Shown here one piece after another: positions 27,529 to 46,406 of a stretch of 50,937 nt of DNA. Below the pieces are notes generated by a model. That model was not told where the DNA came from, ran no database searches, and saw only the letters and a list, made by a program, of their open reading frames with translations. The position numbers were made by a program, and so were the translations under genes. Each line of letters starts with the position of its first letter. The stretch's first letter is position 1. This stretch comes from a virus. Its lineage: Duplodnaviria > Heunggongvirae > Uroviricota > Caudoviricetes. Location of the stretch: the IMG/VR virus record IMGVR_UViG_2541047814_000001. One strand, 5' to 3'.

Positions 27529-29028
27529 GTGACGCTCAATACTTCTCAGGTCAGTTACTATATGACTCAGCGTAAGAAAGGTATAACTCAGCATATCTCG
27601 GCCATGAAGGCTGGTATCTCAGTCCGTTCTGGTCGTCGGATCGAAAAAGGAGAGTGGGCAAAAAACAGTGTTCGGCACTGGCGCACACGCAAAGATCCTC
27701 TGGAAGCTGTGTGGGACAGCATGCTTGTTCCTCTGTTGAAAGAGAGGCCGGCTCTGACACCAACAACTCTGCTGGAGATGCTACAGGATAAATATCCCGG
27801 CCAGTACCCCAACAGCCTTCGAAGAACAATGCAACGGCGGGTCCGCGAATGGAAGCTACAGTATGGTGCAGAGCAGGAGGTCATGTTCCGCCAGCGACAT
27901 CAGCCCGGTCTGCGAGGTCTGTCGGACTTTACTGAACTGAAAGGTGTAGTTGTCACCATCGCCGGTAAGTTGTTGGCGCATAAGTTGTATCACTTCCGTC
28001 TGGAATGGAGCCACTGGAGCTGGATGCGGGTTGTGCTGGGTGGTGAGAGCTTCTCTGCTCTGGCTGAAGGTCTGCAGGAAGCCCTCGGACAACTGGGCGG
28101 AGTGCCGGTAGAACATAAAACGGACAGCCTGAGGGCAGCATGGAAACAACAGGGCGAAGATGGACGCCGCGAGCTGACTGAGCGTTATGCTGCTCTCTGT
28201 CAGCACTACGGAATGCAGGGCGTACACAATAATGCCGGTCGGGGCCACGAAAATGGCTCGGTTGAAAGTGCCCACGGACATCTGAAAAGGCGTATCTGTC
28301 AGGCGCTGATACTGCGGGGCAGTAACGACTTCAGCACCATAGAAGAATATCAGGCCTTCATCACTCAGCAGGTTATGCGGCACAACCGTAACAATCAGGA
28401 TCTGGTCAAGGAAGAACGTCTTCATCTGAAACCGCTGCCGCTTCGTCGCAGTGCTGACTATGATGAGCTGACTGTGAGGGTTAGCCGCAGCAGTACCATC
28501 AATGTGAAGCACGTCGTCTACAGCGTACCTTCCCGGCTTGTAGGTCAACTGTTACGGGTCCGGTTATGGGACGATCGTCTGAGCTGTTACGTTGGCAGCA
28601 GCGAGGTCATGAGCTGCCCACGTGTCAGACCAGAAAAAGGGAAGACGCGGGCCCGTCGTATCGACTTCCGACATGTGATCGACAGTCTGGCAAAAAAGCC
28701 CGGTGCGTTCTGCCATGCAACGCTGAGAAATGACATCCTGCCAGACGATGAATGGCGGAGGCTGTGGCGTCGCTTATGTAATCATCTGGAACCCGACATG
28801 GCAGGCAGGCTGATGGTACATGCTCTGAAACTGGCTGCAGGATACGACGATATCTCAGTCGTGGCAAAAGGTATGGAGCAGATGCTGAATACCCCGGGAA
28901 ACGTGGATCTGCACCGGCTGATGCGCTTCCTGGGTATAAAGGAAAAGGCGTTGCCGGTAGTCAATGTGAAACAGCATAACCTGAGCAGTTATGAGCAACT
29001 ACTGCGTGGCAAGGGAGGTTCGCAGTGA
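27529..29028 (+). CDS. istA: IS21-family transposase IstA (499 aa)
   Basis: N-terminal HTH, DDE-type core, typical IstA length; followed by istB. Confidence 0.85.
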   Translation: MTLNTSQVSYYMTQRKKGITQHISAMKAGISVRSGRRIEKGEWAKNSVRHWRTRKDPLEAVWDSMLVPLLKERPALTPTTLLEMLQDKYPGQYPNSLRRTMQRRVREWKLQYGAEQEVMFRQRHQPGLRGLSDFTELKGVVVTIAGKLLAHKLYHFRLEWSHWSWMRVVLGGESFSALAEGLQEALGQLGGVPVEHKTDSLRAAWKQQGEDGRRELTERYAALCQHYGMQGVHNNAGRGHENGSVESAHGHLKRRICQALILRGSNDFSTIEEYQAFITQQVMRHNRNNQDLVKEERLHLKPLPLRRSADYDELTVRVSRSSTINVKHVVYSVPSRLVGQLLRVRLWDDRLSCYVGSSEVMSCPRVRPEKGKTRARRIDFRHVIDSLAKKPGAFCHATLRNDILPDDEWRRLWRRLCNHLEPDMAGRLMVHALKLAAGYDDISVVAKGMEQMLNTPGNVDLHRLMRFLGIKEKALPVVNVKQHNLSSYEQLLRGKGGSQ

Positions 29029-29780
29029 GCAATATCCATCACCTTGAACGCAGCCTGCGTAAACTACGCCTGACACGAGTTGGAGCTGAATGGCACGCTC
29101 TGGAAAAACGAGCACTGGCAGAAGGCTGGACACCATCGCGCTATCTTCTGACGCTATGCAATGAAGAACTCCTGTGGCGCGAGAGTGAAAAACTGCGTCG
29201 TTATAAAAAGGAGGCCCGGTTGCCAGTTGCCAAAACGCTAAGCGAATACGACTTCAGTCAGGTGCCGGAACTGAATGGAGCTCAGTTCCGGCAACTCTGT
29301 GAAACGACAGACTGGGTTGATGCAGGAGAAAACGTTCTGCTGTTCGGAGCCAGCGGGTTGGGGAAAAGCCATCTGGCGGCAGCGATCGTGGATGGCGTAG
29401 TAGGCCAGGGCTACCGGGCCCGGTTCTACAGCGCAGGAGAGTTGTTGCAGGAACTACGTAAAGCCAGAGCGCAGTTGAAACTGAATGAGCTGCTACTGAA
29501 ACTGGATCGCTACCGGGTGATAGTGGTGGATGATCTTGGCTATGTCAAACGCGACAGCGCCGAAACGGGAGTACTGTTCGAGTTAATAGCGCATCGCTAT
29601 GAACGTGGGAGCCTGGTGATAACCAGTAACCATCCGTTCAGCATGTGGGGCAGCATCTTCGTGGATGAGACTATGGCGGTGGCGGCGGCAGACCGGCTGA
29701 TCCATCACGGATATATGTTCGAACTGAAAGGTGAAAGCTACAGGAAAAAGACAGCGAAGGCAGTAACAAGCGCGACTTGA
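29025..29780 (+). CDS. istB: IS21-family ATP-binding helper IstB (251 aa)
   Basis: Walker A GASGLGKSHLA and Walker B VIVVDDLGY. Confidence 0.85.
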   Translation: MSNIHHLERSLRKLRLTRVGAEWHALEKRALAEGWTPSRYLLTLCNEELLWRESEKLRRYKKEARLPVAKTLSEYDFSQVPELNGAQFRQLCETTDWVDAGENVLLFGASGLGKSHLAAAIVDGVVGQGYRARFYSAGELLQELRKARAQLKLNELLLKLDRYRVIVVDDLGYVKRDSAETGVLFELIAHRYERGSLVITSNHPFSMWGSIFVDETMAVAAADRLIHHGYMFELKGESYRKKTAKAVTSAT

Positions 29781-29828: not shown

Positions 29829-30272
29829 CTAGTTGACGTCTAATACCAGTTGCTTCTGCATCGTCATCAGCCGCTCTCTGAGGGTGAAATAATCCCGTGT
29901 AACGGTGTCTGCCAGTTGGGGGCCGGTTGCATTATCCACGCGGGCGGTGCCGGTGGCTTCACGCACGGGACCTGGACAGGTGGCGTTGATACGCAGGCGC
30001 TTACGACCAGCGGCAACGTCAGCGCGAAGAGTTTCATTTTCAGCTTTCGCATCAGCTAACTCCTTCGTGTATTTTGCATCGAGCGCAGCAACATCACGCT
30101 GACGCATCTGCATGTCAGTAATTGCCGCGTTCGCCAGCTTCAGTTCTCTGACATTTTTGTCGCGCTGGGCTTTGTAGGTAATGGCGTTATCACGGTAATG
30201 ATTCAGCCCCAGACTAAGCGCACCACAGGCCACCAGCAGGGCAATGATGACCACGCACAGTACGCGGTTCAT
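29829..30272 (-). CDS. Rz: i-spanin Rz (147 aa)
   Basis: N-terminal TM segment then coiled coil; directly downstream of endolysin; contains embedded Rz1. Confidence 0.8.
29867..30052 (-). CDS. Rz1: o-spanin Rz1 lipoprotein, embedded in Rz in the +1 frame (61 aa)
   Basis: Lipobox ...VVSAC followed by proline-rich [29 protein letters not shown], as in lambda Rz1. Confidence 0.75.
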
Positions 30273-30570
30273 TTCACCACCAGCGTATCTGACCGATGAA
30301 ATAACCGGAGGCCATAATCACAAACACCAGCCAGATAAGAATGAACTTCCAGGTGGATAATTTTTCAGCCATCACTCGAATCTCCCGAATCAGTTTGCTA
30401 AAATCAAACACACTTTCTCCTTTGACTTTTCCGGAGTCAGGAAACACAAAACCCCGCTTGGTGCCAACAAACGGGGTTTTTACTTTTATTCACTTACGTT
30501 TCGCCAGTTCGCAGGATTTCGTGTTATCCGCCCGCGTGGCCATACCTTATTTTTCAGCAAAATATTCTGC

Positions 30571-31104
30571 TTATCTGTCGATTCCCCAGCACGCCAGCGC
30601 GCTCTCCTGGTCACGACGGGATACCTGACCGTAGCAGTTGTTTGAACGAATACGGCAGTCTCTGCCACCGTCCTTAATCCACCAGCGAATCGCCTCACAC
30701 GCTCCCCTGCGATCACCTGCATTAATTCGTTTATAAAACGTCGACGGGAAACACTTACCGGGACCAATGTTGTACGGACAGAATGACGCGATCCCCGCTT
30801 TCTGGGGTTCACTCAATGGCACTCTGATGTTTTTCTCCACCCATGCCAGCGCCTTATCACGCTCAATGGCGTTAACCCGGTCGCATTTTTCCTTCGACAA
30901 CTTCATGCCCGGAACGACAGGTTTGCCATCCACCAGGATGGCACCGCGGCAGATGGTCCAGATACCCGCACCATCACGGTATGCCGTGGTGTGGTTACCT
31001 TCCTTTTCATCCAGAAACTGGTCGAGAATGTCAGGCGCAGGCGCACCAGCGGCAATCAGCGCCAGAACGGCAGCCGACAGGCCGTATCTGATTTTTGCGT
31101 TCAT
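30571..31104 (-). CDS. R: Endolysin R, T4-type lysozyme (GH24) with SAR-like N-terminus (177 aa)
   Basis: E-D-T catalytic region DEKEGNHTTAYRDGAGIWTICRG; hydrophobic Ala/Gly-rich N-terminal segment. Confidence 0.85.
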   Translation of the reverse strand: MNAKIRYGLSAAVLALIAAGAPAPDILDQFLDEKEGNHTTAYRDGAGIWTICRGAILVDGKPVVPGMKLSKEKCDRVNAIERDKALAWVEKNIRVPLSEPQKAGIASFCPYNIGPGKCFPSTFYKRINAGDRRGACEAIRWWIKDGGRDCRIRSNNCYGQVSRRDQESALACWGIDR

Positions 31105-31209
31105 GGATATTTATCAGGATTTATCGGTTTCTGAGCCCTGGATATGTTTATCAGTTCCAGCCTGTTGCCTCAGGCTGCTAACAGGTCAATACAATCATGA
31201 GGATTATTT

Positions 31210-31482
31210 ATGGACAATAACACCATTTCTCTACAGGAGTTGCTCGACAGCATTTCCAGGCTTCGGGAAGACGTGAATACCCTTACCGTCGCCTTCTCAT
31301 ATCTGGCATTCTCAATTCCAAGGGAACAGATGCAATCAACGCTGGCATCAATCCAGTTTGAATCATGCAATCCCAAATGGTCTCAGGAACAACAAGACTC
31401 TTTCAGGCGGCTTGCTGTATTACTGGATGAAAAATATGCTGGTAAAATTACCATTTCGGCGGACTCTTCAGAGAACCCGTAA
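31210..31482 (+). CDS. Hypothetical protein (90 aa) antisense within the lysis cassette
   Basis: GAGGA RBS 6 nt upstream of ATG; upstream TTGCCT...TACAAT promoter-like elements; non-repetitive composition; overlaps the 3' end of the YdfR-like gene. Confidence 0.35.
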   Translation: MDNNTISLQELLDSISRLREDVNTLTVAFSYLAFSIPREQMQSTLASIQFESCNPKWSQEQQDSFRRLAVLLDEKYAGKITISADSSENP

Positions 31483-31792
31483 TTATTCCCGGTAGTTTTC
31501 CTCTGTAGGTTATCAACACATCCTGCGCCTCTAAAATTACGGGGCGCTTTTCCGGCGACTGCTCATCCCCTTCACATAACCCGGCAGCAACATCCAGGAA
31601 GACCTGTCTGATGCTCCTTCTGGCTGCTGCCTCATAAAACTCCAGCGCGGCACCTTCAACACGGTCCAGCGAGATGTCCAGGTCAAAAATTTCACCGTCA
31701 AAGCGTTTTTTGTCCCGTAACGCTAAAGTTACCGTAACTTTATTCTCAAAATTGCGGATCCCTTTCACAATCAGTTCATAGTTTTGAGTCAT
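31448..31792 (-). CDS. YdfR-like (DUF1327-like) protein between holin and endolysin (114 aa)
   Basis: Position matches ydfR between essQ and rrrQ in Qin; family assignment from memory. Confidence 0.5.
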   Translation of the reverse strand: MTQNYELIVKGIRNFENKVTVTLALRDKKRFDGEIFDLDISLDRVEGAALEFYEAAARRSIRQVFLDVAAGLCEGDEQSPEKRPVILEAQDVLITYRGKLPGIITGSLKSPPKW

Positions 31793-31796
31793 TGAA

Positions 31797-32012
31797 TTAC
31801 TCTCCCCGTGCAGCCTTACGACGGTCCTCTCTGATTTTGAAATACAGGTTAGTCAGATATGTCAGCAGCCCAAACAGCAGACTCCCCAGCACGCCTATTG
31901 CCGCCCACTGAGACGGGGAAACCCTGTCCAGCAACTGCAGGAACCAGTAGCCCGTTCCCACCGCTGACGTGGTGTATGACACACCTGTTGTGATTTTTTC
32001 CATCTGGTACAT
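31797..32012 (-). CDS. S: Class II holin / pinholin, S21-like (71 aa, possible dual start MYQM)
   Basis: [67 protein letters not shown] closely resembles phage 21 S. Confidence 0.8.
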
Positions 32013-32044
32013 ACCCCGTCTCCCGTTATCCGGAAGCTGACAAC

Positions 32045-32078
32045 AATAAAAAAAGCCACCAGTTAAGTACTGATGGCT
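32045..32078 (-). terminator. Hairpin plus T7 terminator between nanS-p and the holin (minus strand)
   Basis: Minus strand GCCATCAGTACTTAACTGGTGGC followed by TTTTTTT. Confidence 0.5.
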
Positions 32079-32162
32079 CTGATAACTCATGCAGGCATCT
32101 CAGACGACCCACTGACACTACCGGTGAGTTTAACGATACCTTCCATTTGGCTGGCTCACTTT

Positions 32163-34016
32163 TTATGATGATGCCGGTGCATTTATCTCCAGCACCAGAC
32201 TTTCTATCTCAACGCCATACGCTGCATTTTTGGTAATATCCGTCAGCGTCAGCGCATTCAGCCCCAGTGTCAGACTGTCTTTTATGACCTGGAATGCCGG
32301 GCCAGCCACTCCATTCAGTTTCGGAGTAACCGTGGCACTGCCGGCGGTGAACACCAGCTCCAGCGTCTGCCAGTCGTTACTGTAATTCCCGAACTCGCCC
32401 AACTTTGTGTTTCCTGCTTTCTTGTGATGCATCAGATTCAGTTTGCCGTCTGTGGTCTGGGTGAAGAACGACATCAGGAACGGGTTACCAGTCCCGGTCA
32501 TCGCCACGACGTCAGGTAACGCTACATCGGTATACAGATAAATTCCCAGACCGAACTGGTTGTTGGTCAGTGCGCCTGACAGTCGAAACTTACAGCTCAG
32601 TCTGCCACCCCGTGTCAGCAGGGAGACTGCGTCATCCACCGGGCGCGTCAGGGACCAGGCTTTATTGCTCTGCTTGGTGATCTTAAATACACCATCTGAC
32701 AACTGAATTCCGCCATTCTTAATGCTCCAGCCCTGCGCAGCAGCGTCTCCGGCTGTCGGCAACAGGGAGATTGTGCGTATGGATGCATCTTCAGACGGCC
32801 CCGATGGCGTGTCGCCGCCGGGCGAGGCTTTGATTTCCGGTGCCTTACCACTAATGAAGGCTAAGGTGCGACCGGCTACGTTCAGAATAGCCGTTGCCAT
32901 ACGATCGGGAATAATGCCACGACGCGCCCATGAGCTGAAATGCGTCGGGCGATTTGATGATACCCAGTTTTTGTTCGTTCGGGATGCCGAACCGTAATAA
33001 CCAGACCCGGCAATATCAGGATCTTCTGACGGGTTGTTTGTCGGTGTATTAACTCCGCTACCATCGGTCATAAAGGGAACAAAATAAATCTGCTGGGATT
33101 CTTTACCTTTATATGCACCATATACCACTTCATATTGCGTACCGTGTTCTTGTTTCCACGCGTATGTCGTGTCGCCACAAATCCAGGGGACTGATGCCGG
33201 ACTTCCACCGTGACACTGCGCCGCCAGCCCGGCAAGGTCAGCACGGAACTGCTGTACCATTGCAAGAAATGCTGCTGGCTGCTGGGCGTAACTGGCATTC
33301 GTCATATCGAATTCCCCCTGCATCCAGCATATCGCCAGCAAAACGTTTTTCGGGTTTTTCTGCAATGCTGCCTTCGTGCGGAAAAGCAGATCCTGATATA
33401 ACGGCTTACCCACTCCCCAGCGAGCCGAATCCTGACTGGCTCCCGTGGACTCGCTGAATGTCCCCTCCGTGCCCTGGGTGAATGCCGAACCACCACGACA
33501 GCATGGTACCAGCAGGATCCCCGCATTATTAGGGATATACGGAAGCAGTTTTTTGGCAATATGTAAGCCCTGTCCGACACAGCCGTACTGCCCTTTGCTC
33601 AGGTCAGCCCGGGGATGGTTAATCGTACTCATATCCTGAACATCATGCAGACAATGGTCAGCAGGAATGATGTCGTTAAATACGCATACTTCACCACCGG
33701 GAGTCACTGTGTTACGACGGGCCAGTTGCTTAATGCGCGGATGGGGCGCATCGTATGAATCCGGAAGCGGAAGCCCTTCACCGTAAGCCATGGCATTGGA
33801 TTGCCCGGCCAGTACGATGACGTAGTACCACTCCGGCTCAGTTGCACCACTGACGACCACATCACCTTCTGCTGCAATCGCCTGCATCAGGGTATAAGGG
33901 GTTATGGCCACCGGACTACCAAACGGCTGCCAGCCCTCCTTCAGTTTTTGTGTCAGTCGTTTCGCAAGGTCTGACGGCGATGCCGCCCTGACCACGTCAT
34001 AGTGTTTAAATGCCAT
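32163..34016 (-). CDS. nanS-p: Prophage sialate O-acetylesterase NanS-p-like (DUF1737 N-terminus + SGNH/SASA esterase, 617 aa)
   Basis: SGNH motif LAGQSNAMAYGEG; N-terminal MAFKHYDVVRAASPSDLAKRL domain; position downstream of Q/tRNAs as in Stx phages. Confidence 0.75.
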   Translation of the reverse strand: MAFKHYDVVRAASPSDLAKRLTQKLKEGWQPFGSPVAITPYTLMQAIAAEGDVVVSGATEPEWYYVIVLAGQSNAMAYGEGLPLPDSYDAPHPRIKQLARRNTVTPGGEVCVFNDIIPADHCLHDVQDMSTINHPRADLSKGQYGCVGQGLHIAKKLLPYIPNNAGILLVPCCRGGSAFTQGTEGTFSESTGASQDSARWGVGKPLYQDLLFRTKAALQKNPKNVLLAICWMQGEFDMTNASYAQQPAAFLAMVQQFRADLAGLAAQCHGGSPASVPWICGDTTYAWKQEHGTQYEVVYGAYKGKESQQIYFVPFMTDGSGVNTPTNNPSEDPDIAGSGYYGSASRTNKNWVSSNRPTHFSSWARRGIIPDRMATAILNVAGRTLAFISGKAPEIKASPGGDTPSGPSEDASIRTISLLPTAGDAAAQGWSIKNGGIQLSDGVFKITKQSNKAWSLTRPVDDAVSLLTRGGRLSCKFRLSGALTNNQFGLGIYLYTDVALPDVVAMTGTGNPFLMSFFTQTTDGKLNLMHHKKAGNTKLGEFGNYSNDWQTLELVFTAGSATVTPKLNGVAGPAFQVIKDSLTLGLNALTLTDITKNAAYGVEIESLVLEINAPASS

Positions 34017-34209
34017 GAATCCTCCCGGGCGGGATAATGTTGTGAGTCAGATAAGGAGCAGGCTGAAGTCCGGAAGTTACAGGACAATGGCAGAAGGGAG
34101 ACTACAGCCCGCAATTCGAAAAAGACCGCGCAGTTGCGCAGAGTGATTACTATGGGGTATTATTCGCCAGCTGAAATATTACTTCACGTTTTATTGTTTA
34201 TTCCTTGCC

Positions 34210-34238
34210 GCCCGCGTCTCCCAGCGCGGGCTTTTTTT
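34210..34238 (+). terminator. Plus-strand rho-independent terminator (GCCCGCG-loop-CGCGGGC + T7)
   Basis: 7-bp GC stem and T7 read directly; a candidate promoter (TTGCGC - 18 nt - TATTAT, 34134-34163) lies about 50 nt upstream on the same strand. Confidence 0.55.
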
Positions 34239-34241
34239 GTC

Positions 34242-34430
34242 CATAAGAAAGCCCCTCCGGAGAGGGGCTAAAGCCGCGTATCTGTATCATCATGCACATG
34301 GTGCCGGGTGCCTCCCGGTGAGTTCAGCCCGGTGCCACTAAACCCGCGTCATTCTCGTTTTGATAATCAGAGATTATACCGTCACCAGTCGCCCCTCCGC
34401 TCAGGGGGATTCACCATGCGAAATTTTTTT
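34242..34430. repeat. Direct repeat unit 1 (about 180 bp, imperfect) with GCCCCTCCGGAGAGGGGC hairpin
   Basis: Shares blocks with 34735-34915 (aaagcccctccggagaggggct, ggtgccgggtgcctcccggtga, cccctccgc.cagggggattcaccatgc, tgaattgtgag). Confidence 0.6.
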
Positions 34431-34734
34431 AACAAATGCCCAGTCTGACAGGCAACTGTCAACTTACTGAATTGTGAGCAACATAGCATTTAACGGGGAA
34501 CCTGTTTTCTGCAGTAAAAAGGCCCACCGGAGCGGATGGGCCTGGAAGGATAGCGGTCATGTGATGCCGGTTTCCCGGTAACTCAGCACCGGTATCTGAG
34601 TCAACGTTTTCTCTACTGGGTCATTTCCGATACGCCCTGCCTGCTGACAGGCTTTCATCACATCTGAAAATATAGCACCCTGACTGATACTGTAGTACCT
34701 AAGGTTCCAGAAACTGTGATGTATCCGGCACAGA

Positions 34735-34915
34735 AAAGCCCCTCCGGAGAGGGGCTGGAGAGTGGCGCTATGTGCCATTGCATGGTGCCGGGTGCCTCCC
34801 GGTGAATTCAGTACCAGCACCTGAATCCGCGATTATCCCATATACCTACTCGCTGATTGCCCCTCCGCACAGGGGGATTCACCATGCCAGTTTCTTTTAA
34901 CAAACTCCCCGCAAA
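34735..34915. repeat. Direct repeat unit 2 (partner of 34242-34430)
   Basis: Same conserved blocks in the same order and orientation. Confidence 0.6.
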
Positions 34916-34989
34916 CCAGACAACAGTCAACCGCCTGAATTGTGAGACATTTAAAAAAAGCCCGCAAAAGCGAGCCAGGGAAAATAAGT

Positions 34990-35067
34990 GTGGCGCGTTG
35001 TACTGGATTCGAACCAGTGACCGATTGCTTAGAAGGCAATTGCTCTGTCCGGCTGAGCTAACAACGC
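34990..35067 (-). tRNA. tRNA-Arg (anticodon UCU)
   Basis: Minus strand folds as cloverleaf; anticodon loop CTTCTAA; T-loop TTCGAAT; 3' CCA encoded. Confidence 0.8.
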
Positions 35068-35080
35068 AGGATACAGATAA

Positions 35081-35157
35081 TGGACCGCCTTCGGGGACCC
35101 GAACTCCGCGCAACCAGCTTCGAAAGCTGGCGCTCTTTCCTGATGAGCTAATGGCGG
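35081..35157 (-). tRNA. tRNA-like gene, probably Arg (anticodon read as UCG); atypical T-arm
   Basis: D-arm GCTC...GAGC, anticodon stem CCAGC/GCTGG with loop TTTCGAA, CCA end; T-stem has one mismatch and T-loop is TTCGGGT. Confidence 0.45.
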
Positions 35158-35164
35158 TATGTGA

Positions 35165-35240
35165 TGGTGGCCCTTGCTGGATTTGAACCAGCGACCTGGC
35201 GATTATGAGTCGCTCGCTCTCACCACTGAGCTAAAGGGCC
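35165..35240 (-). tRNA. tRNA-Ile2-like (anticodon CAU; ileX/ileZ type)
   Basis: GGCCCTTTAGCTCAGTGGTGAGAGCGAGCGACTCATAATCGC...GGGCCACCA; near-canonical cloverleaf, 76 nt. Confidence 0.85.
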
Positions 35241-35289
35241 GGGAGCAGAATAATAATGGTGCGTAATTAATTCTGCAATCTCATCCGTT

Positions 35290-36339
35290 TCAAACGATTA
35301 AATCCTGAACTTCCCTGACTGTCTGCTCAAAACGTCCGGTCTCCAGTTCAACGCCAATCGCACGACGCCCAAGCGCCAGTGCCGCTTTTACCGTTGAACC
35401 TGAGCCCATAAAAAAATCTGCAACCAGGTCACCCGGACGACTGCTTGCGCTGATTATCTGCTGCAGCATTTCTGCCGGTTTTTCGCACGGATGTTTCCCG
35501 GGATAGAACTGCACCGGTTTATGTGTCCACACATCCGTGTACGGCACCTGCGCCGTCACACCAAAATACCGCCGCAGATGCTTATATTCACTCTGCAGCT
35601 CCACATACTGCCGGTTCAGTGACGTATACGTATCCACCAGCTGGTGGTGGGGCTTTTCCAGTTCACCGCGCTGATGTTTCTCTTCTGCCACCCGGGCAAA
35701 CAGCGACTGTAATTTCAGATAATCGCTTTCGTTCGGTAGCTGCCACTGACTGGCACTGAACCAGTGCGACACCATGTTTTTCTTTCCTGTGGCATCTGCA
35801 ATCTGTTTTGCCGTTATCCCCAGGGCAGCGCGCGCATCACGAAAGTAAGAAATCAGCGGGGCCATCACATGCTGTTTCAGTGCACTGCCCTTCGCCGCAT
35901 ACCCGGCATCTTTCGGACGATACGGCCCCTGATAATGTTCCGCGAACAGAATGCGCTCTGTGGCGGGGAAATACGCCCGCAGGCTTTCCTTGTTGCATCC
36001 GTTCCAGCGTCCGGACGGCTTCGCCCAGATAATATGGTTCAGCACACTGAAGCGTTCACGCATCATGATTTCGATATCAGATGCCAGGCGATGACCACAG
36101 AACAGGTAAAGACTTCCGACAGGTTTCAGCACCCGCCAGAACTGCGCCAGACACTGGTCCAGCCACTTCAGGTAATCATCGTCGCCCTTCCACTGGTTAT
36201 CCCAGCCCTCAGGCTTCACTTTAAAGTACGGCGGGTCCGTGACTATCAGGTCAACAGAATTTTCGGGTAACGACCGGATAAATTCCAGGCAGTCGGCGTT
36301 GATTAACTCACAACTGGATATTTTTACAGTATTAAGCAT
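35290..36339 (-). CDS. DNA methyltransferase (N6-adenine/N4-cytosine type, DPPY motif, 349 aa)
   Basis: Catalytic motif IVTDPPYF; C-terminal SAM-binding FFMGSGST; position between Q and the tRNAs. Confidence 0.8.
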   Translation of the reverse strand: MLNTVKISSCELINADCLEFIRSLPENSVDLIVTDPPYFKVKPEGWDNQWKGDDDYLKWLDQCLAQFWRVLKPVGSLYLFCGHRLASDIEIMMRERFSVLNHIIWAKPSGRWNGCNKESLRAYFPATERILFAEHYQGPYRPKDAGYAAKGSALKQHVMAPLISYFRDARAALGITAKQIADATGKKNMVSHWFSASQWQLPNESDYLKLQSLFARVAEEKHQRGELEKPHHQLVDTYTSLNRQYVELQSEYKHLRRYFGVTAQVPYTDVWTHKPVQFYPGKHPCEKPAEMLQQIISASSRPGDLVADFFMGSGSTVKAALALGRRAIGVELETGRFEQTVREVQDLIV

Positions 36340-36489
36340 GGATCATTAAGCCTGTCTCTGATAGGCTCATTCTGCTTTTGCGCAAAGCAGTGGGCCTGAG
36401 GTTTGCTTGTGAACCCAACGCATGAGCAGATGGCTGGTGGGTGCCCCTAACACCCACCAGCCGCCCATTTACCACAAATAAAAAAGCCT

Positions 36490-36687
36490 TCAGGACTGAA
36501 GGCGTCTGTAACAACCGAACTGATAGTCTGCCAGACCCGCCATAACCAGCTGGGTCAGTATTAACTGGCAGCGTTCGCGTGAAAGGTAAGTATTCTGCGC
36601 TATCTCCCCGACTGTCGCCGGTTCGGTAACGCTTAATTCATTAAACACCACTCTGGCGGTTTCTGTCATATCCTGCTGTTTTAGCAT
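36490..36687 (-). CDS. Small hypothetical protein, possible winged-helix DNA-binding (65 aa from MLKQQD...)
   Basis: AAGGA-like RBS upstream of internal ATG; helix-turn-helix-like TVGEIAQNTYLSRERCQLILTQLVMAGL. Confidence 0.4.
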   Translation of the reverse strand: MLKQQDMTETARVVFNELSVTEPATVGEIAQNTYLSRERCQLILTQLVMAGLADYQFGCYRRLQS

Positions 36688-36807
36688 GTCTTTTTCCTTT
36701 TTCCGGTTAACGTGACATACCAATAACTCTTGTCGAAAAAGCCAGCAAGCTGAAAGACCCGTATTCGCAACCACCAGCGTGTTTACTGTACTGACGCGAT
36801 TTTGGGC

Positions 36808-36834
36808 ATAAAAAAAAACCGCCTGACGGCAGTT
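36808..36834 (-). terminator. tR'-like terminator just downstream of the Q-like gene (also a hairpin + T8 on the plus strand)
   Basis: Minus strand AAAAAAAA-CTGCCGTCAGGCGG-TTTTTTTTT; imperfect stem, long T tract. Confidence 0.5.
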
Positions 36835-36874
36835 TTTTTTCTTACTTTGCCATCGCGTACAAAATCGGCAAAAT

Positions 36875-36915
36875 ATCAGATTTATACGAAACGTACGCTA
36901 TTTAATTGACTTTTG
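36875..36915 (-). promoter_or_regulatory. Candidate late promoter PR' with -10 TATAAA immediately after the Q stop
   Basis: TATAAA (plus 36881-36886) about 16 nt 3' of the Q stop; -35 is weak; a start here would give a short 6S-like leader ending at the tR'-like terminator. Confidence 0.3.
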
Positions 36916-37591
36916 CAATATCTCGTCGTGAAAAAGTCGCTTTTTGTTGCGCTCTTATTTTCACGGTGCAAATCACAGATTCTCTATCGAGACTCTTAAA
37001 AATATCGCACATCTCACGCCAGTAGTTCGCATAATTATGGCTCCAGTTATCAGGCTTAACTCCACACAGTCTGGCAAGCTCCTGTCTCTGGTAGACCTCA
37101 CACCCGGTAATCCATCCTCTGACATCCTGTGCCGCCAGCCAGATCAACTTCTTCACGCGCTCCTGCGTTTTCCCTGCAATTTTTCTGGTGCCGTACCGGG
37201 TTTTAAATTCATTCCACACCCACTGCGTTATCGCGATCTGATATTCCCAACAAATACTCCCGCTGTAACACCACAACAACCAGGCTTTATGATGTTCTTC
37301 AAGAGACAGAACAGCCCGCCGCCACGATGATGTCGAAAACTCAACCGGACTGACGAGAGGAATTGACACCCCCTTCGCCAGCGATTGCTTTCCCGGGATT
37401 GGTGGATTATCCCGCGTTATCATTTTTCCAGTCACTTCATCGCGGTACCGGATTTTTTTACGCCTGTAACGCCCTGTATCAAACATGGCATTCTCCTGCC
37501 AGGCCTCAAGCTGCCCTTTTGTTGATCCACTCAAATCGGCGGTGGCAATCATGAGTTGCTCACGAACAAACTGTAAATACTGGTTATTCAT
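36902..37591 (-). CDS. Antitermination protein Q-like (229 aa)
   Basis: Position between rusA and the PR'/tR'-like signals and late genes; size similar to Qin-type Q. No diagnostic motif confirmed by eye. Confidence 0.5.
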   Translation of the reverse strand: MNNQYLQFVREQLMIATADLSGSTKGQLEAWQENAMFDTGRYRRKKIRYRDEVTGKMITRDNPPIPGKQSLAKGVSIPLVSPVEFSTSSWRRAVLSLEEHHKAWLLWCYSGSICWEYQIAITQWVWNEFKTRYGTRKIAGKTQERVKKLIWLAAQDVRGWITGCEVYQRQELARLCGVKPDNWSHNYANYWREMCDIFKSLDRESVICTVKIRAQQKATFSRRDIAKVN

Positions 37592-37953
37592 GCGTACTCC
37601 AGTTCTGTGATTTTTATCCCCAACCGCCCACCAGGAACAAGCTGACCGCGCACAATATTAATTTCATCAAACTGCTCGTCGTCTATGAGCAGCCCCGCAT
37701 GCGTCAGTACATCCAGTGGTGCCTTCAGGATATTGTCCAGGTCACGACGGCGCTTATCCGGTGGCTCTGCAATAATTTCTATTGCCGGCCTTCCGGACAG
37801 GTTTAATTTCAGTTGCTGCTGGCGAACAATAAGCGCCACATCACGGCGATAACGCTCACCGACTTTTGATACAAAATATGTGCTGCCACGACGTCGCCAG
37901 TAAGTGTTCACCGTTGGCGGGTAAGGCAAAACAAATTCTATGCGTTCAGTCAT
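37588..37953 (-). CDS. rusA: Holliday junction resolvase RusA (121 aa)
   Basis: PPTVNTYWRRRG and RRRDLDNILKAPLDVLTHAGLLIDDEQ match RusA catalytic-core motifs. Confidence 0.85.
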   Translation of the reverse strand: MTERIEFVLPYPPTVNTYWRRRGSTYFVSKVGERYRRDVALIVRQQQLKLNLSGRPAIEIIAEPPDKRRRDLDNILKAPLDVLTHAGLLIDDEQFDEINIVRGQLVPGGRLGIKITELEYA

Positions 37954-39009
37954 TTATGCTTTCCACTTCAGAACACCCGAATTTCTCGCGTGCATTAAAA
38001 AACGAATCAGCAACAACAGCTGGCTGCCGTGTTTTTCTTCAAAATCTTTTACCCCGGCGTGTAGTTCGCTATGGCATTTACGGCACAGCGGAATAACAAA
38101 CAAATCATCAGCCTTTGTTCCCATCCCTCCCAGTCCATGACCAATGATGTGATGCGGATCATCTGCCTGATTGCCACACGTCATGCATTTCTGCGTTTTT
38201 ACCCAACGCGTGTATACAGGCATCTCTTCCCGTTGTGATTTCTGGCGCTGGAGATACTGAGCCGGTGACTCCGGATCAACGGCAATGCTGACCACCGTCT
38301 TTTCCTGTGGCGGGTTTTGCTGGTGGGCGTGAGGCAGCGGCGCAAGATTTTTTGTGCGCTGCTTCAGTATGCTGGTGGCGGTCTGCTCTCCCGGTACGAT
38401 GTCGCTTTCACGGTACATTGAGCGGATTTTTTCCGCACGCAACCCCAGCGAACGACGTAATACCGCTTCCGGTAGCGCGTCCGCCACCTGATTGCGGACC
38501 GCCCACCAGGATAATTCAGCCAGCGATAATTCCCGCTCCTGCGAGCCATTCATTGCATGGCGTATGACGTCAATCATCCATGCAGACAGGTTTTGGTGAG
38601 CAAGTTGCCCGAGTGATTCGGAGGTCTGGTCGCGCAGCTGGTTGTCGCAGTGCCAGCACAACACCATTGCGCCGGTACCATAACGGTGAATGACGGTTTC
38701 ACTGTGGTGATAATCGCCGTGTGGCCACTGGCAGGATTTAACATGGCGCAGTAACCAGTCAGACAATGCGCCAGCGCCACCAGCAGCACGAATCACTCGT
38801 TCGTCGCTGAAAAATGGCAGTAATGATTTATCCTCCGCCAGCGGCTGGCGAACGGCAGGAACGACCCCGGACGGCAGATTACGCATGCTTTTCGGTTCCG
38901 GCTCCACCAGTACCCGGGTATTGTGGAATACCGGCATGGATTCACGGCCCGGCTTAACGATCACCAGCCCGAGTTCCGGTACCAGAACAGGTCGAAGTAA
39001 TACCCGCAC
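37954..39009 (-). CDS. DUF968-like protein with C-terminal HNH-like Cys/His cluster (351 aa)
   Basis: CMTCGNQADDPHHIIGHGLGGMGTKADDLFVIPLCRKCHSELH; position upstream of rusA/Q as ydfU in Qin (from memory). Confidence 0.55.
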   Translation of the reverse strand: MRVLLRPVLVPELGLVIVKPGRESMPVFHNTRVLVEPEPKSMRNLPSGVVPAVRQPLAEDKSLLPFFSDERVIRAAGGAGALSDWLLRHVKSCQWPHGDYHHSETVIHRYGTGAMVLCWHCDNQLRDQTSESLGQLAHQNLSAWMIDVIRHAMNGSQERELSLAELSWWAVRNQVADALPEAVLRRSLGLRAEKIRSMYRESDIVPGEQTATSILKQRTKNLAPLPHAHQQNPPQEKTVVSIAVDPESPAQYLQRQKSQREEMPVYTRWVKTQKCMTCGNQADDPHHIIGHGLGGMGTKADDLFVIPLCRKCHSELHAGVKDFEEKHGSQLLLLIRFLMHARNSGVLKWKA

Positions 39010-39010
39010 G

Positions 39011-39283
39011 TTACCTCCAGATGCGTTGCTGGAATGTGCGGGACGGACGCGGTGGGCGTTCAGAGTAAGGAAGCCTGACGGAGATTATCCAGTGACGATA
39101 ATCGAGGCTGAGGGCTTTCTTAATCTCGTATCCGCGTCTGCGGTAGTTATGAATTAGCCATTCGGCCTGTTCTTCAGTACATGGTGGGTGTTGGTACCAG
39201 TCGGTTTTAAATGCGTGTGAACGCCGCCCATGCCGGATGGCAAGGTCGGTATCAGAATTGTGAAATTTGGTTTTGTGCGCCAT
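39011..39283 (-). CDS. Hypothetical phage protein (90 aa)
   Basis: ORF abutting the DUF968-like gene; no motif recognised. Confidence 0.4.
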   Translation of the reverse strand: MAHKTKFHNSDTDLAIRHGRRSHAFKTDWYQHPPCTEEQAEWLIHNYRRRGYEIKKALSLDYRHWIISVRLPYSERPPRPSRTFQQRIWR

Positions 39284-39450
39284 CTGTTTTCTCTGCTGGC
39301 GCAGCAGGTGTCAGGTGTTCAGGCTGACGTGCGAATTGTAAACCAGAATGCCAGAAAAAAACAAAACCCGCCGAAGCGGGTTAAGTGCGGGTGCGTTGAG
39401 GATGCCTGACACATCAGAGGTGGCGAGGGATTTCTCCCCCGCCAGGTCTC

Positions 39451-39606
39451 TTACTCCTCAGGTTCGTAAGCTGTGAAGACAGCGACCTCCGTCTGGCCGG
39501 TTCGGAGTCGTACCTCGCAGAGGTCTTTCCTCGTTACCAGTGCCGTCACTATGACGGTTAAACAGATGACGATCAGGGCGATTAACATCGCCTTTTGCTG
39601 CTTCAT
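39451..39606 (-). CDS. hok: Hok/Gef-family type I toxin (51 aa)
   Basis: MKQQKAMLIALIVICLTVIVTALVTRKDLCEVRLRTGQTEVAVFTAYEPEE is a near-canonical Hok sequence; the in-frame upstream extension is probably leader, not coding. Confidence 0.85.
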   Translation of the reverse strand: MKQQKAMLIALIVICLTVIVTALVTRKDLCEVRLRTGQTEVAVFTAYEPEE

Positions 39607-39843
39607 AGCCTGCTTCCCCTTGCCTTTCGGCACGTAAGAGGCTAACCTACATTTGTGAGACATAGATTGGGCCTCAGATTAATGTTAAGCGTCTTGCAGG
39701 ACGCGAAATGTTAACTGGGGCTTTTCTCTATCTGCCTTTCAGTGTTCATGCCTGAGACAGATAGCCTCAAGCACCCGCAGCCATTCTACTTAACTCACGT
39801 CACCTCGCCAATATGAAATCAATCAGAAAGGTGATCCATAAAA

Positions 39844-40530
39844 TCACTCCTTCTCTTCTTTTCCGTAGTGGAGTTGGCCAATTTTGATAAGAGGGCGTCC
39901 CTGAGATTTGCGGTGTAGATTGGTATCGCGCAGAGAATACACACAGCCACAATATTCCTGCTGATAGAATTTTTCGCGCTTGCTGATTTCAATCATACGG
40001 GACGAGCCGCCCTGCTTGCGCCAGTTATAATCCCAGTACACCATACCCGGATAATGCGCAACAGCTCGCCGCCCACACTCGTTAACCTGCTGCATATTTT
40101 TCCAGCGTGAAATGCCCAGTGAACTGCTGATCACACTGAAACCATTTTCAGCAGCGTACAACGCTGTCCGCTCAAAACGCATGTCAAAACACATGGTACA
40201 ACGGATCCCCCTCTCAGGCTCCCATTCCATTCCTTTGGCACGTTCAAACCAGTTGTCGGTGTCGTAATCAGCATCGATAAACGGCACGCCGTGTTGTTCA
40301 GCAAAGCGAATATTTTCATCCTTACGAATTAAATACTCTTTCTGAGGATGAATGTTCGGGTTGTAGAAAAAGATGGTGTAGTCGATTCCCGAGGCCTGAA
40401 GCGCCTCCATCACTTCACCGGAACATGGAGCACAGCAAGAGTGCAGTAGTAGTTTGTTTGCCCCGTTTGGGAGCTCCAATTTAGGCCGTTTGAAATCAGC
40501 AATAGTCATAAATATTTTTATTGGGGTCAT
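39844..40530 (-). CDS. queH: Epoxyqueuosine reductase QueH-like (DUF208, 228 aa)
   Basis: Conserved Cys motifs [28 protein letters not shown] and [11 protein letters not shown], as I recall for the DUF208/QueH family. Confidence 0.7.
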
Positions 40531-40683
40531 GAAAATAGCACAGAGTGTAGCATCAGAGCAGGTCTATCGGGAATATATGTCTAAATCTGGTAATATCTGG
40601 TTTTGACGCAAAGCGGACAACCACGCTGGCTCTACCCTGCGCCATGAAAATGTCAATTCACATCTGAACTAATGCTCTTTAAT

Positions 40684-41124
40684 CTAGTAACGTCTAAAAT
40701 ACCTAACATTTCCTTGATAAAATGCCAGTACACGCTGCATAGCTTCGCTCTTCCGGCACTCGCGACAGATTATATTCAGGCGCCTGTCGTAGCGGCGTAT
40801 TTCGCCGTCTGGTAACGACCAGATAAGGTCCGGATCAACCACTGCAGGTTTCTTCACCTTTGCCCTTGAGAGTTTTTTGCGAGCATTTTGCCAGTCCTTA
40901 CGCGCCTGTTCAGACGGGAATAACCCGTAACCAGAGTTGTATACATCGCCACTGGCAACCAGCTCTCTGGCGAGAACACTCATCAGATATCTTGTCGCAC
41001 CTGTCCTGGCTTCCAGTTGCCGCAACGTCTCGCGACCGCTCAGACGTACAAGTTCAACAACCTGCCCTTTAATTTTTTCCCGCTCTTCTTGTGTAAATAC
41101 TTTTGCCATAAGCGCCTCCGGCAA
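40684..41124 (-). CDS. Hypothetical phage protein (146 aa)
   Basis: ORF in the nin-like region; C-terminal CxxC (CRECRK); no family recognised. Confidence 0.45.
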   Translation of the reverse strand: MPEALMAKVFTQEEREKIKGQVVELVRLSGRETLRQLEARTGATRYLMSVLARELVASGDVYNSGYGLFPSEQARKDWQNARKKLSRAKVKKPAVVDPDLIWSLPDGEIRRYDRRLNIICRECRKSEAMQRVLAFYQGNVRYFRRY

Positions 41125-41895
41125 TCACTTTTCCGATACAACACGGCGGGAAGAATCAGTAATCTGTCGAACAATATCCCGGTGCTTGTTCAGCTCCCGC
41201 AGCGCGGCGCAGACTCGCTCCCACTTCTGAACATCACTTTTCGCCCTGCGCAGCGCCAGGTTTGCCCTGCGAAGGGACGGAAAAATCAGCTCATCTGCTT
41301 GCGTTTCGGTAAACGATGGCAACGGCTGCACAATGTCCGCCACAGTTTCTGTTTTAATTTCTTCCTGTGTTGCGGCTTCCCGGACTGGTAACGCAGCACC
41401 TGCTGGCTGAGGAAAGGCCTTACCATCACTTTCCGTTACCAGCGCGGCTTTCGGCTCTGCTGGTAAATTATCGCCCGGCATGCAGTAACGAAATTTACCG
41501 TTCTGATTAACGCGTGCCAGCCGCCCCGTTGCGGTTACCACCGCCAGCGTGGAAGCAACCTTGCGAGTACTGACACCGAACTTACCCGCCAGTTCCTCAC
41601 ACGTTTTAGCCCCATCCTGACCGATAAACTCAATCATCATGTCTGCGGTAACTTTTTGTTCGACCTCCCCGGTCAGCATATCCTGTGCTTCAGATTTTAC
41701 TGGCCGCTCTTCGGTTACCCGGGATTCACCTTCGCCAGCCAGAAACCAGGTGTGACCAGTTTTATCAACGACGCCTTTTCTTTTGAGTTCCCACAGCTCG
41801 TTGACAGCCTCTTCACGACTGATTCCAAGGCGAGCTGCCACCACATGTGAAGAGGCTTTTTTCAGTGCTTTCAGTGCGTCAGATACGGTTTCCAT
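41125..41895 (-). CDS. Hypothetical protein with two winged-helix-like segments (256 aa)
   Basis: HTH-like VAARLGISREEAVNELWELKRKGVV and AGKFGVSTRKVASTLAVVTATGRLARV; downstream of the DnaC-like gene. Confidence 0.45.
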   Translation of the reverse strand: METVSDALKALKKASSHVVAARLGISREEAVNELWELKRKGVVDKTGHTWFLAGEGESRVTEERPVKSEAQDMLTGEVEQKVTADMMIEFIGQDGAKTCEELAGKFGVSTRKVASTLAVVTATGRLARVNQNGKFRYCMPGDNLPAEPKAALVTESDGKAFPQPAGAALPVREAATQEEIKTETVADIVQPLPSFTETQADELIFPSLRRANLALRRAKSDVQKWERVCAALRELNKHRDIVRQITDSSRRVVSEK

Positions 41896-41916
41896 TAAAA
41901 TTTCCTCCGGACAAAA

Positions 41917-42663
41917 TTACTTCACAACCCTCATATTGCTGACATTTGGACGCCAGCTATCCCAGTTAAACGTCACCCATCGACCACCGTTCATGGTCAT
42001 GCGGTCCATAATCCTCTCACCAAGAAGCGTACTCATTGCGGCATGATTCAGGTTTGTTAACATCCCGACACTGCACAGTGATGCTGTCCGGCGATCAATT
42101 ATCTGGTGCAATACCACCTGCTCGTTTTTCGTCTCCCGCTGAACGCCTATTTCATCCAGGACCAGCAAATCAACCCCGCAAAGCTCCTGTAAAAATTTTT
42201 CCCCGGATTTGCCGTTGTCGTAGCTGTCATGCAACACGCTCATGACGTCAGACACGGTGACGATAATCACGCTGCGCCCCTTCACCATCAGCCGGTTGCC
42301 CATCGCCGCTGCAAGGTGATTTTTCCCGGTGCCGGTTTTACCGCTGAACACAAAATTCGTGCACCCGGTCATCAGTTCGTCAGCTATGGATTTGGCCTGG
42401 CTCAGCGCGTATTTTTGCCCGTCGTTCTGCACCTGATAATTTGCAAACGAGCATTTGCTGTGCAGAGGCTGGATGCCCGAACGATTCAGGATTTTTTCCA
42501 CCCGCAACTGGCGATTCTGGCGGTTAATCTCCTCGCTGCGTTTTCGTCCTTCAGCAAGTTGCCATTCCCGCCACTCCTCCACCGTCCGGTACGGTGGAAC
42601 CGACCCCTGTGGTGCAAGTCTGCGAATACGTTCAAGAACCCCAACTGCCGCAATGTTTTTCAT
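41917..42663 (-). CDS. DnaC-like helicase loader (AAA+ ATPase, YdaV-like, 248 aa)
   Basis: Walker A SGKTGTGKNHLAAA and Walker B LLVLDEIG; same length as Rac YdaV. Confidence 0.8.
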   Translation of the reverse strand: MKNIAAVGVLERIRRLAPQGSVPPYRTVEEWREWQLAEGRKRSEEINRQNRQLRVEKILNRSGIQPLHSKCSFANYQVQNDGQKYALSQAKSIADELMTGCTNFVFSGKTGTGKNHLAAAMGNRLMVKGRSVIIVTVSDVMSVLHDSYDNGKSGEKFLQELCGVDLLVLDEIGVQRETKNEQVVLHQIIDRRTASLCSVGMLTNLNHAAMSTLLGERIMDRMTMNGGRWVTFNWDSWRPNVSNMRVVK

Positions 42664-42669
42664 GACACG

Positions 42670-43617
42670 TCACCCCCTGAATCCCGGCGGTATTTCAGTG
42701 TCCGGTTCAGAAATGTGATTCACGCAACGCTGCGCAGGCGAACGCCCCAGGCGGATAACCAGTTCATCCCATTTTTCCCGGAGTTTTGCCGGACTCATGA
42801 TGTTTTTTACCCAGAACGAATCCCGCTGGAGACGCCCAAACATTTCACAAATTTGTCTGTGAGTTCTGCCATCCAGCATCCGCATTGTGCGAACGTCATT
42901 GGCCCATGCTGTCCAGTTGGGTTCTTTCGGTCTAGTGATCTCGCCATCATAGCTGGCCGCCTGCTCGTAAAGACTCACGATTCGTCCCCAGATCCACTGT
43001 GCGCACACCAAATCTTCCTGACTTCCCCACTGGCGTTTTTTCGCACTGAACACAACCGCGTCAGGGTGTCGGGTTAAAAAATCCTGTTCAGCCGTCTGCG
43101 GGTCCGGTTGCGAAGCGTCCGGACAAGAAGATCTTTTATCTGACGGATCAGGTTTTAATACTGACGGATCGGGGTCAATCATCGCCCCCCTAATCGGCAG
43201 TTTTTTATCAACAGTTGATCCATCAAAATTTGACGGGTCAACCGTTGAGGGGTCATTTTTTGCCGGGCTAATTTTTCTTTTCGGTTTATATGACTCACGC
43301 GCCGCCGCCGCAGCTGCTTCGAGTTTTTCCACATTAAGCCGATAGATATTGCTTACATTACGCCCACCGACCTTACGCTCTTCCTTCGTCAGCCAGCCCT
43401 CTTTCGCCAGTTCTGCAATAGCCGATTTCACTGTGGATTCACTTCTTGCACCGATCTGACGCCGGATAGTTTCAATGGCAGGCCATGACACGCCCTCGTC
43501 ATTGCTGTAGTCTGCAAGACGGGCCATAACCGCCACCCTGGATAAGATCATGCCGGTGAAGGCGCACCCTTCCCAGACAAGACCATGAAGCTTGCTGCTC
43601 ATAAAACCCCCGAACAC
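42670..43617 (-). CDS. Replication initiation/organiser protein, YdaU-like (DUF1376-like, 315 aa)
   Basis: N-terminal wHTH, internal Pro/Asp-rich repeats (DPSTVDPSNFDGSTVD), position upstream of the DnaC-like loader. Confidence 0.55.
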   Translation of the reverse strand: MFGGFMSSKLHGLVWEGCAFTGMILSRVAVMARLADYSNDEGVSWPAIETIRRQIGARSESTVKSAIAELAKEGWLTKEERKVGGRNVSNIYRLNVEKLEAAAAAARESYKPKRKISPAKNDPSTVDPSNFDGSTVDKKLPIRGAMIDPDPSVLKPDPSDKRSSCPDASQPDPQTAEQDFLTRHPDAVVFSAKKRQWGSQEDLVCAQWIWGRIVSLYEQAASYDGEITRPKEPNWTAWANDVRTMRMLDGRTHRQICEMFGRLQRDSFWVKNIMSPAKLREKWDELVIRLGRSPAQRCVNHISEPDTEIPPGFRG

Positions 43618-46348: not shown

Positions 46349-46406
46349 TTTCTGGTGACGTTTGGCGGTATCAGTTTTACTCCGTGACTGCTCTGCCGCC
46401 CTTTTT
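46349..46406 (+). ncRNA. dicF: DicF sRNA (53 nt plus T-tract terminator)
   Basis: TTTCTGGTGACGTTTGGCGGTATCAGTTTTACTCCGTGACTGCTCTGCCGCCC followed by TTTTT matches the DicF sequence as I recall it; lies upstream of dicB as in Qin. Confidence 0.65.

Follow-up and report, generated by a model that had tools for sequence, protein, structure and literature searches.

Genes at the locus

The DNA analysed here (the window) is a 50,937-nt stretch of the viral record IMGVR_UViG_2541047814_000001, a lambdoid (lambda-like) prophage of Escherichia coli in which the minus strand carries most genes and the integrase gene forms the end of the stretch. This report concerns queH, a gene of that prophage identified as encoding an epoxyqueuosine reductase, and the hok/mok/sok toxin-antitoxin locus that follows it on the same strand. 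Coordinates are positions in the window, and QueH residue numbers are those of the 228-aa version of the protein. A first reading of the sequence by a model, made without database searches (the original prediction), had described a QueH-like tRNA-modification gene carried with a Hok toxin and alongside phage tRNAs; the positions and the minus-strand assignment that it gave for queH and hok were confirmed.

A BLAST comparison gave 99.95% identity between positions 29846-43267 and an E. coli AR_0013 prophage, while outside this interval the two showed indels and 88-96% identity. The AR_0013 copy covers window positions 20028-50937 and adjoins ompW, an insertion site that is known for the AR_0013 copy only. 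Treatment of the window as the AR_0013 prophage from end to end was rejected, as the near-identity is confined to 29846-43267. The features of the queH gene are as follows:

40544-40558, minus strand: 5' edge of the queH cassette, with CTCTGATGCTACAC (40558-40545) and an extended -10-like TGcTACACT (40552-40544)
39844-40509, minus strand: queH coding sequence, 666 bp, 221 aa, epoxyqueuosine reductase QueH (DUF208)

Identity of the queH gene

The longest open reading frame (ORF), 39844-40530 (228 aa), matched the Pfam QueH profile PF02677 over profile positions 1-174 of 175 (E 1.1e-65; 221.5 bits, cut-off 23.5), and its product matched the solved Thermotoga maritima QueH (PDB 7lc5; E 7.8e-22) with the motifs CCAPx (N-terminal), RCxxC (central) and YCGC (C-terminal) in register. 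The original prediction had placed the protein in DUF208 by its cysteine signature and had proposed a profile search as the check; the search upheld the assignment, and all seven signature cysteines (C32, C33, C36, C111, C114, C194 and C196) are present. The same seven residues were invariant in an alignment of the phage protein with 11 homologues (12 sequences), so that the catalytic-ligand motif is intact. In RefSeq the protein is annotated as "epoxyqueuosine reductase QueH" (WP_000150294.1, 221 aa). The T. maritima enzyme and the QueH proteins of Erwinia, Providencia, Photorhabdus and Proteus resemble it in their full-length Pfam match and in their CCAPC, RCxxC and CGC motifs.

The predicted length of 228 aa is correct for the longest reading frame and too long for the protein. 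The start was assigned to Met8, giving 221 aa, on three grounds: the O7:H15 prophage copy has ATT in place of the upstream ATG (40530), which is thus not conserved; chromosomal homologues begin at the second ATG (Met8); and the RefSeq protein has 221 aa. The sequence CTCTGATGCTACAC lies ~36 nt before the queH start; this 14-mer was invariant in five prophage or phage contexts, and the O7:H15 copy diverges upstream of it. The extended -10-like TGcTACACT at this edge is a candidate queH promoter. No riboswitch or other RNA element was found upstream of queH in Rfam at the gathering threshold, nor at E values up to 5 over 40480-40760, where there was one chance miRNA match. Ahead of a six-codon ORF (MDHLSD; 39819-39839, minus strand) stands an AAGGAG that shares nucleotides with the queH stop codon; the ORF is also conserved in strain 7/2 and sits in sequence common to hok-bearing phages without queH.

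Distribution, origin and selection of queH

Of 5,426 complete E. coli genomes, 995 (~18%) carried queH, with at least 80% of the coding sequence in 985 of the 995; nearly all copies were chromosomal, and all copies sampled were annotated as QueH. The gene for the B12-dependent enzyme, queG, was present in every one of the 5,426 genomes, so that each carrier of queH encodes two enzymes for this step. The block of queH together with hok was found in 741 complete genomes. When prophage copies of queH were compared, dN/dS was 0.042-0.063 at dS of up to 0.46, which places the QueH protein under purifying selection.

The phage protein was 78-90% identical to the aligned RefSeq-named QueH proteins of Erwinia, Photorhabdus, Providencia, Proteus, Ewingella and Serratia symbiotica. 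The Erwinia-type gene, the only homologue whose context was checked, lies between purL and glrK on long contigs, whereas the phage gene is carried on a lambdoid prophage in a species that already has QueG. These observations suggest that phage queH was captured from an enterobacterial chromosome. In IMG/VR, 191 viral contigs encode a QueH relative, and the top 80 loci, all of them E. coli prophage copies at 100% identity, contributed no diversity. Phage HannyBb is the sole deposited phage genome that convincingly carries queH, where the product is annotated as hypothetical. Records of QueH in "phages" of other hosts (very large Acinetobacter and Staphylococcus records, and short faecal contigs) were unconvincing as phage genomes and were not used.

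Context of queH in other prophages

In the four RefSeq-annotated prophage copies that were compared (the window/AR_0013, NCTC10537, strain 7/2 and O7:H15 ST70), queH comes after the DUF977-family gene that closes the replication module; HannyBb, an isolated phage, has an equivalent 141-aa gene, annotated as Ren-like, ahead of queH. The gene downstream varies: the window, NCTC10537 and HannyBb have hok there, strain 7/2 has KwaA/KwaB (Kiwa) and O7:H15 ST70 has a DUF1971 gene. In phages with this hok that lack queH, the match breaks off at ~39841, at the queH stop codon. The slot that queH occupies between the replication module and the hok/nin region holds PD-T7-1 in mEp460 (L093:3495-4844) and a PDC-S15/FRG-domain protein in Tritos (L094:3546-4880), and in E. 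coli 7/2 (L010:3153-4792) the Kiwa genes stand directly after queH. By these comparisons the slot reads as a cargo or defence hotspot of related lambdoid phages. No match to the PADLOC defence models was obtained for QueH, Hok, the 90-aa ORF, DUF968 or DUF977. Since the downstream neighbour varies, queH and hok do not form a functional unit; they appear to be two conventional modules, independent of each other, that adjoin in the early-right arm (replication to Q).

The hok/mok/sok locus

The toxin-antitoxin locus comprises the following features:

39783-39811, minus strand: hok mRNA promoter from the promoter scan, -35 TTGGCG (39811-39806), 17-nt spacer, -10 TAGAAT (39788-39783)
39360-39776, minus strand: full-length hok mRNA, ~417 nt, predicted
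39451-39663, minus strand: mok frame, 70 aa, overlapping hok and mediating its translation; its start aligns with the annotated mokC start
39451-39606, minus strand: hok coding sequence, intact 51-aa membrane toxin (Pfam PF01848 HOK_GEF, E 1.6e-22)
39382-39365, minus strand: hok intrinsic terminator, from the promoter/terminator scan
39655-39731, plus strand: predicted Sok antisense RNA, ~75 nt, projected from the annotated K-12 sokC and sokB
39620-39648, plus strand: Sok promoter-like site read from the sequence, -35 TTGCCT (39620-39625), 17-nt spacer, -10 TAACCT (39643-39648)

The locus could be aligned with K-12 hokC and hokB over its entire length with the hok frame undisrupted, and the description of a canonical, intact 51-aa Hok thus proved accurate. 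The product is hokD in RefSeq (WP_000813262.1). The promoter begins 33 nt below the queH stop codon, and its -10 TAGAAT aligns with the TATAAT of K-12 hokC. The promoter, tac, mok, Sok target, hok, fbi and terminator are alignable with those of R1 hok/sok, of K-12 hokC/sokC and hokB/sokB and of the MokW/HokW loci of lambdoid and Stx phages. The same locus was found at 88-98% identity in ~100 phage records, under the names MokW, HokD or gef. The absence of relBE from the flanks of hok, as predicted, agreed with the ORF list, Pfam and the RefSeq annotation: in contrast to K-12 hokD, the phage gene, although called HokD in RefSeq, lies outside a relBE operon and retains its predicted mok/sok control.

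The predicted 417-nt hok mRNA folded with its 5' end paired to its 3' end (minimum free energy (MFE) -173.7 kcal/mol, z -7.2); the tac element GGGUGCUUGAGG (39776-39765) pairs with the fbi element CCUCAACGCACCC (39401-39389) in both the MFE and the centroid folds. A plus-strand Sok had been proposed for roughly 39610-39720, and homology placed one at ~39655-39731 with its promoter at 39620-39648; the predicted RNA folds into a hairpin of -31.8 kcal/mol followed by a U-run (z -4.7). Compared with hokC and hokB, the leader/Sok region contains an extra 18-20 nt (39681-39701) with a perfect 5-bp hairpin, GCGUC-N6-GACGC, which lengthens the predicted Sok to ~75 nt and is common to the hok of the NCTC10537 prophage.

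Rfam RF01794 ("sok antitoxin") matched 39601-39776 on the minus strand, the hok strand, with 120.5 bits against a gathering score of 59. Its alignment and consensus end at the hok AUG, and the model therefore represents the hok leader and not the antisense Sok; automatic annotation with RF01794 would assign "sok" to the wrong strand. A sub-threshold likeness to IsrK, a Salmonella prophage small RNA (sRNA), at 39361-39442 (minus strand; 27 bits, gathering score 50, E 7e-4) overlaps fbi and the terminator and is probably a resemblance of hairpin plus terminator only.

By its anatomy the locus appears to be a complete, self-contained type I toxin-antitoxin locus of the standard kind. The unstable antisense Sok would keep a stable, folded hok mRNA silent; once Sok is lost, the Hok membrane toxin would be made by mok-coupled translation. 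Element stabilisation, stress response and abortive infection are candidate roles for a prophage hok/sok; an anti-T4 effect of hok/sok has been reported and is disputed, the classic effect not having been reproduced in a 2026 re-test (PMC13047441).

Phage tRNAs and codon usage

The three phage tRNAs of the original prediction, including a CAU Ile2-type, were found at the following position:

34991-35240, minus strand: three tRNA genes, Ile2(CAU)-Arg(UCG)-Arg(UCU), the CAU tRNA being tRNA-Ile in RefSeq

Queuosine is formed only on tRNAs with GUN anticodons. The anticodons CAU, UCG and UCU are not of this type, so the phage tRNAs are not QueH substrates. The codons AGA, AGG, CGA, CGG and ATA occur at 8.1, 5.2, 5.5, 13.0 and 8.7 per 1000 codons in the AR_0013 prophage genes against 1.7, 0.2, 3.7, 5.8 and 3.3 in the flanking host genes, an enrichment of 1.5- to 25-fold. 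The richness of the prophage in these codons would explain the tRNA trio as a supply for rare codons. The NAU share of codon pairs decoded by queuosine (Q) tRNAs was unshifted, at 0.573 in the prophage genes (AR_0013 copy) and 0.583 in the flanking host genes, and a codon-usage rationale for Q in phage genes was rejected on these values. Other queH prophages carried tRNA-Gly/Thr, or no tRNA in the ~5 kb flanks examined. The proposed link between queH and the tRNAs in altering host decoding was accordingly not supported, given the non-GUN anticodons, the lack of NAU enrichment and the variation of the tRNAs among queH prophages.

Proposed function of QueH and alternative explanations

The queuosine pathway of E. 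coli (tgt, queA and others) is established, and the species is unable to make B12 de novo. QueA forms epoxyqueuosine (oQ) at tRNA position 34 (oQ34), which is reduced to Q34 by QueG or QueH (PMC5372724); QueG is cobalamin-dependent, whereas QueH is cobalamin-independent and iron-dependent (PMC13443448, PMC5615194). According to its title, as cited in PMC10639084, the paper by Frey et al. (1988) concerns a cobamide requirement for the conversion of oQ to Q in E. coli. The host enzyme QueG (b4166) has the same predicted reaction as phage QueH (PMC5372724) but an unrelated fold and a requirement for cobalamin, and it belongs to the core genome, while queH is accessory.

Phage QueH, as an Fe-S/Fe-dependent enzyme, would convert oQ34 to Q34 on host tRNA-Asp, -Asn, -His and -Tyr, which would allow lysogens to finish queuosine synthesis under cobalamin shortage or when cobalamin import fails. 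Because QueG depends on B12 and E. coli does not make B12 de novo, the prophage enzyme is most likely an isozyme for conditions of B12 scarcity. We therefore favour the explanation that prophage QueH is a cobalamin-independent back-up isozyme for host QueG, with a probability of roughly 0.65. The gene would be an accessory (moron-type) cargo gene of enterobacterial chromosomal origin, retained by selection. Enzymatic activity, expression in the lysogen and a B12-sparing benefit are what we infer from the sequence comparisons.

Several observations weigh against this explanation. A search of NCBIfam gave no model match for QueH, so the RefSeq name must derive from another rule. In the alignment with 7lc5, the phage protein has Cys36 where T. 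maritima QueH has the Asp of its CCAPD motif. Asp13 of the T. maritima enzyme reportedly ligates an extra iron, and Li et al. (2021) are said to have assigned cysteine ligand roles for the [4Fe-4S] cluster and the adjacent iron; the ligand set of phage QueH may thus differ from that of the solved enzyme. The queH start codon lacks a Shine-Dalgarno sequence. The consensus sigma-70 scan called no promoter upstream of queH, where the candidate is an extended -10 only, its calls being the hok promoter and one plus-strand chance site; queH may be transcribed from the phage early promoter only, after induction. Finally, oQ and Q need not differ in function in E. coli.

Such a dependence on induction is central to the explanation that queH is an auxiliary of the lytic cycle, silent in the lysogen, transcribed with the early-right genes after induction and raising Q relative to oQ so as to tune phage translation. 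Here queH shares the orientation of an operon-like array with the replication genes and Q, with no terminator upstream, and HannyBb, an isolated phage, has it too; for Shewanella, a specific induction of queG by phage infection, with Q rising relative to oQ, has been described (preprint, bioRxiv 10.64898/2026.03.05.709803). NAU use in the prophage genes is not above that in the flanking host genes, however, and the conserved 5' cassette edge with its extended -10 travels with queH. The gene is also intact in the NCTC10537 prophage, which is interrupted by an insertion sequence (IS), and in a Qin-like region of strain 7/2, which argues for selection at the level of the host. A lytic role was judged fairly improbable. 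That queH should instead be a neutral hitch-hiker, a functionless passenger of recombination, might be supposed from its redundancy, on paper complete, with the core gene queG. Such a passenger would not be expected to show dN/dS of 0.04-0.06 at dS of up to 0.46, to have a nearly complete coding sequence in 985 of the 995 genomes that carry it and to be kept across different phage backbones, and this explanation is disfavoured, with hardly any weight left to it.

The original prediction had in effect joined queH, hok and the three tRNAs into one coordinated package for altered decoding, with hok co-transcribed with queH or stabilising it. The 237 nt between the queH stop and the hok ATG contain no terminator, and about 75% of queH copies adjoin this hok (741 against 985 genomes); yet hok has its own conserved promoter and the full predicted tac/fbi/Sok control, it is common without queH (~100 phage records, in which the match ends at the queH stop codon), and Kiwa or DUF1971 replaces it downstream of some queH copies. 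A queH-hok unit was not supported. The tRNAs for their part are 4.2 kb away, are not Q substrates and are different or unseen in the examined flanks of other queH prophages. The package is largely refuted by these comparative data and was considered very improbable.

Placement of queH in a slot where mEp460 and Tritos hold PD-T7-1 and PDC-S15, respectively, and where the Kiwa genes come next in strain 7/2, brings up a role in conflict between phage and host or between phages, through an effect of the modification state of GUN tRNAs on susceptibility to anticodon nucleases or defence systems. A link between colicin E5 and Q-tRNA belongs to the same background, and the adjoining hok/sok has itself been credited with the disputed anti-T4 effect noted above. 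Set against this, QueH has no PADLOC match, it is 78-90% identical to enterobacterial QueH with all catalytic cysteines retained, and hotspots hold non-defence cargo too; we regard a conflict role as very unlikely. In its specific form, which is given an equally low rating, QueH would set the state of GUN tRNAs, Q or oQ, without need of B12 or BtuB, and superinfection or an attack by anticodon nucleases or defence systems could then end differently. If true, it would explain why queH sits in a lambdoid defence hotspot; btuB-null cells, whose lack of BtuB protects them from the phages and colicins that use it, could retain full Q, and a strain-dependent supply of queuine to the animal host would be a side consequence. 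The back-up of QueG by a cobalamin-independent isozyme remains the explanation that we favour.

Prophage setting and other features

The remaining genes of the region, in the order of minus-strand transcription, are as follows:

Replication module, minus strand: DnaC-like ATPase, DUF1627 and DUF977 (40684-41124), then queH and hok/mok/sok
After hok/mok/sok: 90-aa ORF, DUF968/HNH, RusA and antiterminator Q (36902-37591)
After Q: orphan DNA methyltransferase, the three tRNAs (35240-34991), SASA-type esterase and lysis genes

The nin-like setting of the original prediction is matched by this order, with queH and hok between the replication genes and Q. The methyltransferase gene (35290-36339, minus strand), between Q and the tRNAs, encodes an enzyme of the type II N6/N4 kind (PADLOC MTase_II, E 4e-167) and is an orphan, as its surroundings show no evident restriction partner. 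The sRNA STnc100 is present twice (34239-34448 and 34726-34916, minus strand; 165 and 136 bits), directly downstream of the tRNA trio and upstream of the esterase gene. The latter (32163-34016, minus strand), downstream of Q and the tRNAs, occupies the position of stx in Stx phages; its 617-aa product combines the domains DUF1737, SASA (sialate O-acetylesterase-like) and DUF6645. No stx genes were found at this position, where every ORF from the tRNAs to the lysis genes was accounted for; the annotation of the AR_0013 copy likewise shows none.

An IS21-family-like pair (27529-29780, plus strand; a 499-aa transposase-like ORF and a 251-aa IstB ATPase) is inserted beside the Rz lysis gene (29829-30272) and is not in the otherwise near-identical AR_0013 prophage. 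An ALIL frameshift pseudoknot at 26374-26473 (plus strand) marks a nearby IS3-family remnant, an element in which AR_0013 has a group II intron instead. The antisense sRNA DicF (46350-46401, plus strand; 76.7 bits) is immunity-proximal, and dicB is annotated nearby in the AR_0013 copy, as in Qin-type prophages. The Rfam RNA IS009 (2062-2260, minus strand; 225 bits) was matched at the tail-fibre end of the prophage.

Comparison with known systems and significance

Enzymes of the queuosine pathway are likewise borrowed by the phage clusters for 7-deazaguanine (preQ0/G+) modification of DNA (FolE, QueCDE, DpdA). Those clusters modify DNA via DpdA, whereas the queH described here stands alone: no deazaguanine-pathway or transglycosylase genes are annotated in the AR_0013 copy covering 20028-50937, and in the remaining 20 kb the ORFs, judged by their sizes and order and not by individual searches, are typical of lambdoid morphogenesis genes. 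With no deazaguanine or DpdA partner annotated beside queH, tRNA is its expected substrate. A 2019 survey by Hutinet et al. reported no QueA, QueG or QueH homologues in the viruses analysed (PMC6884629), and a literature search found no paper describing a prophage or phage QueH in E. coli. The pairing of cobalamin-dependent and -independent isozymes in one genome follows the same logic as MetH and MetE (PMC6461909), except that in this case a phage carries the cobalamin-independent member, which only ~18% of strains possess.

The components are ordinary ones: RefSeq already names queH and hok correctly across hundreds of genomes, and lambdoid phages are well known to carry hok/sok, whereas carriage of queH by phage has been little noticed. 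The value of the finding lies in a cheap, testable physiological hypothesis and not in a new type of system. If the explanation holds, this prophage would provide a clear case of a temperate phage with a queuosine-specific tRNA-modification enzyme. Should QueH be active in lysogens, approximately one in five E. coli strains would complete queuosine without vitamin B12, while K-12-type strains need imported cobalamin. Strains would then differ in Q versus oQ, and possibly in the decoding of NAU and NAC codons, in Q-linked biofilm and virulence traits and in the release of queuine in the gut.

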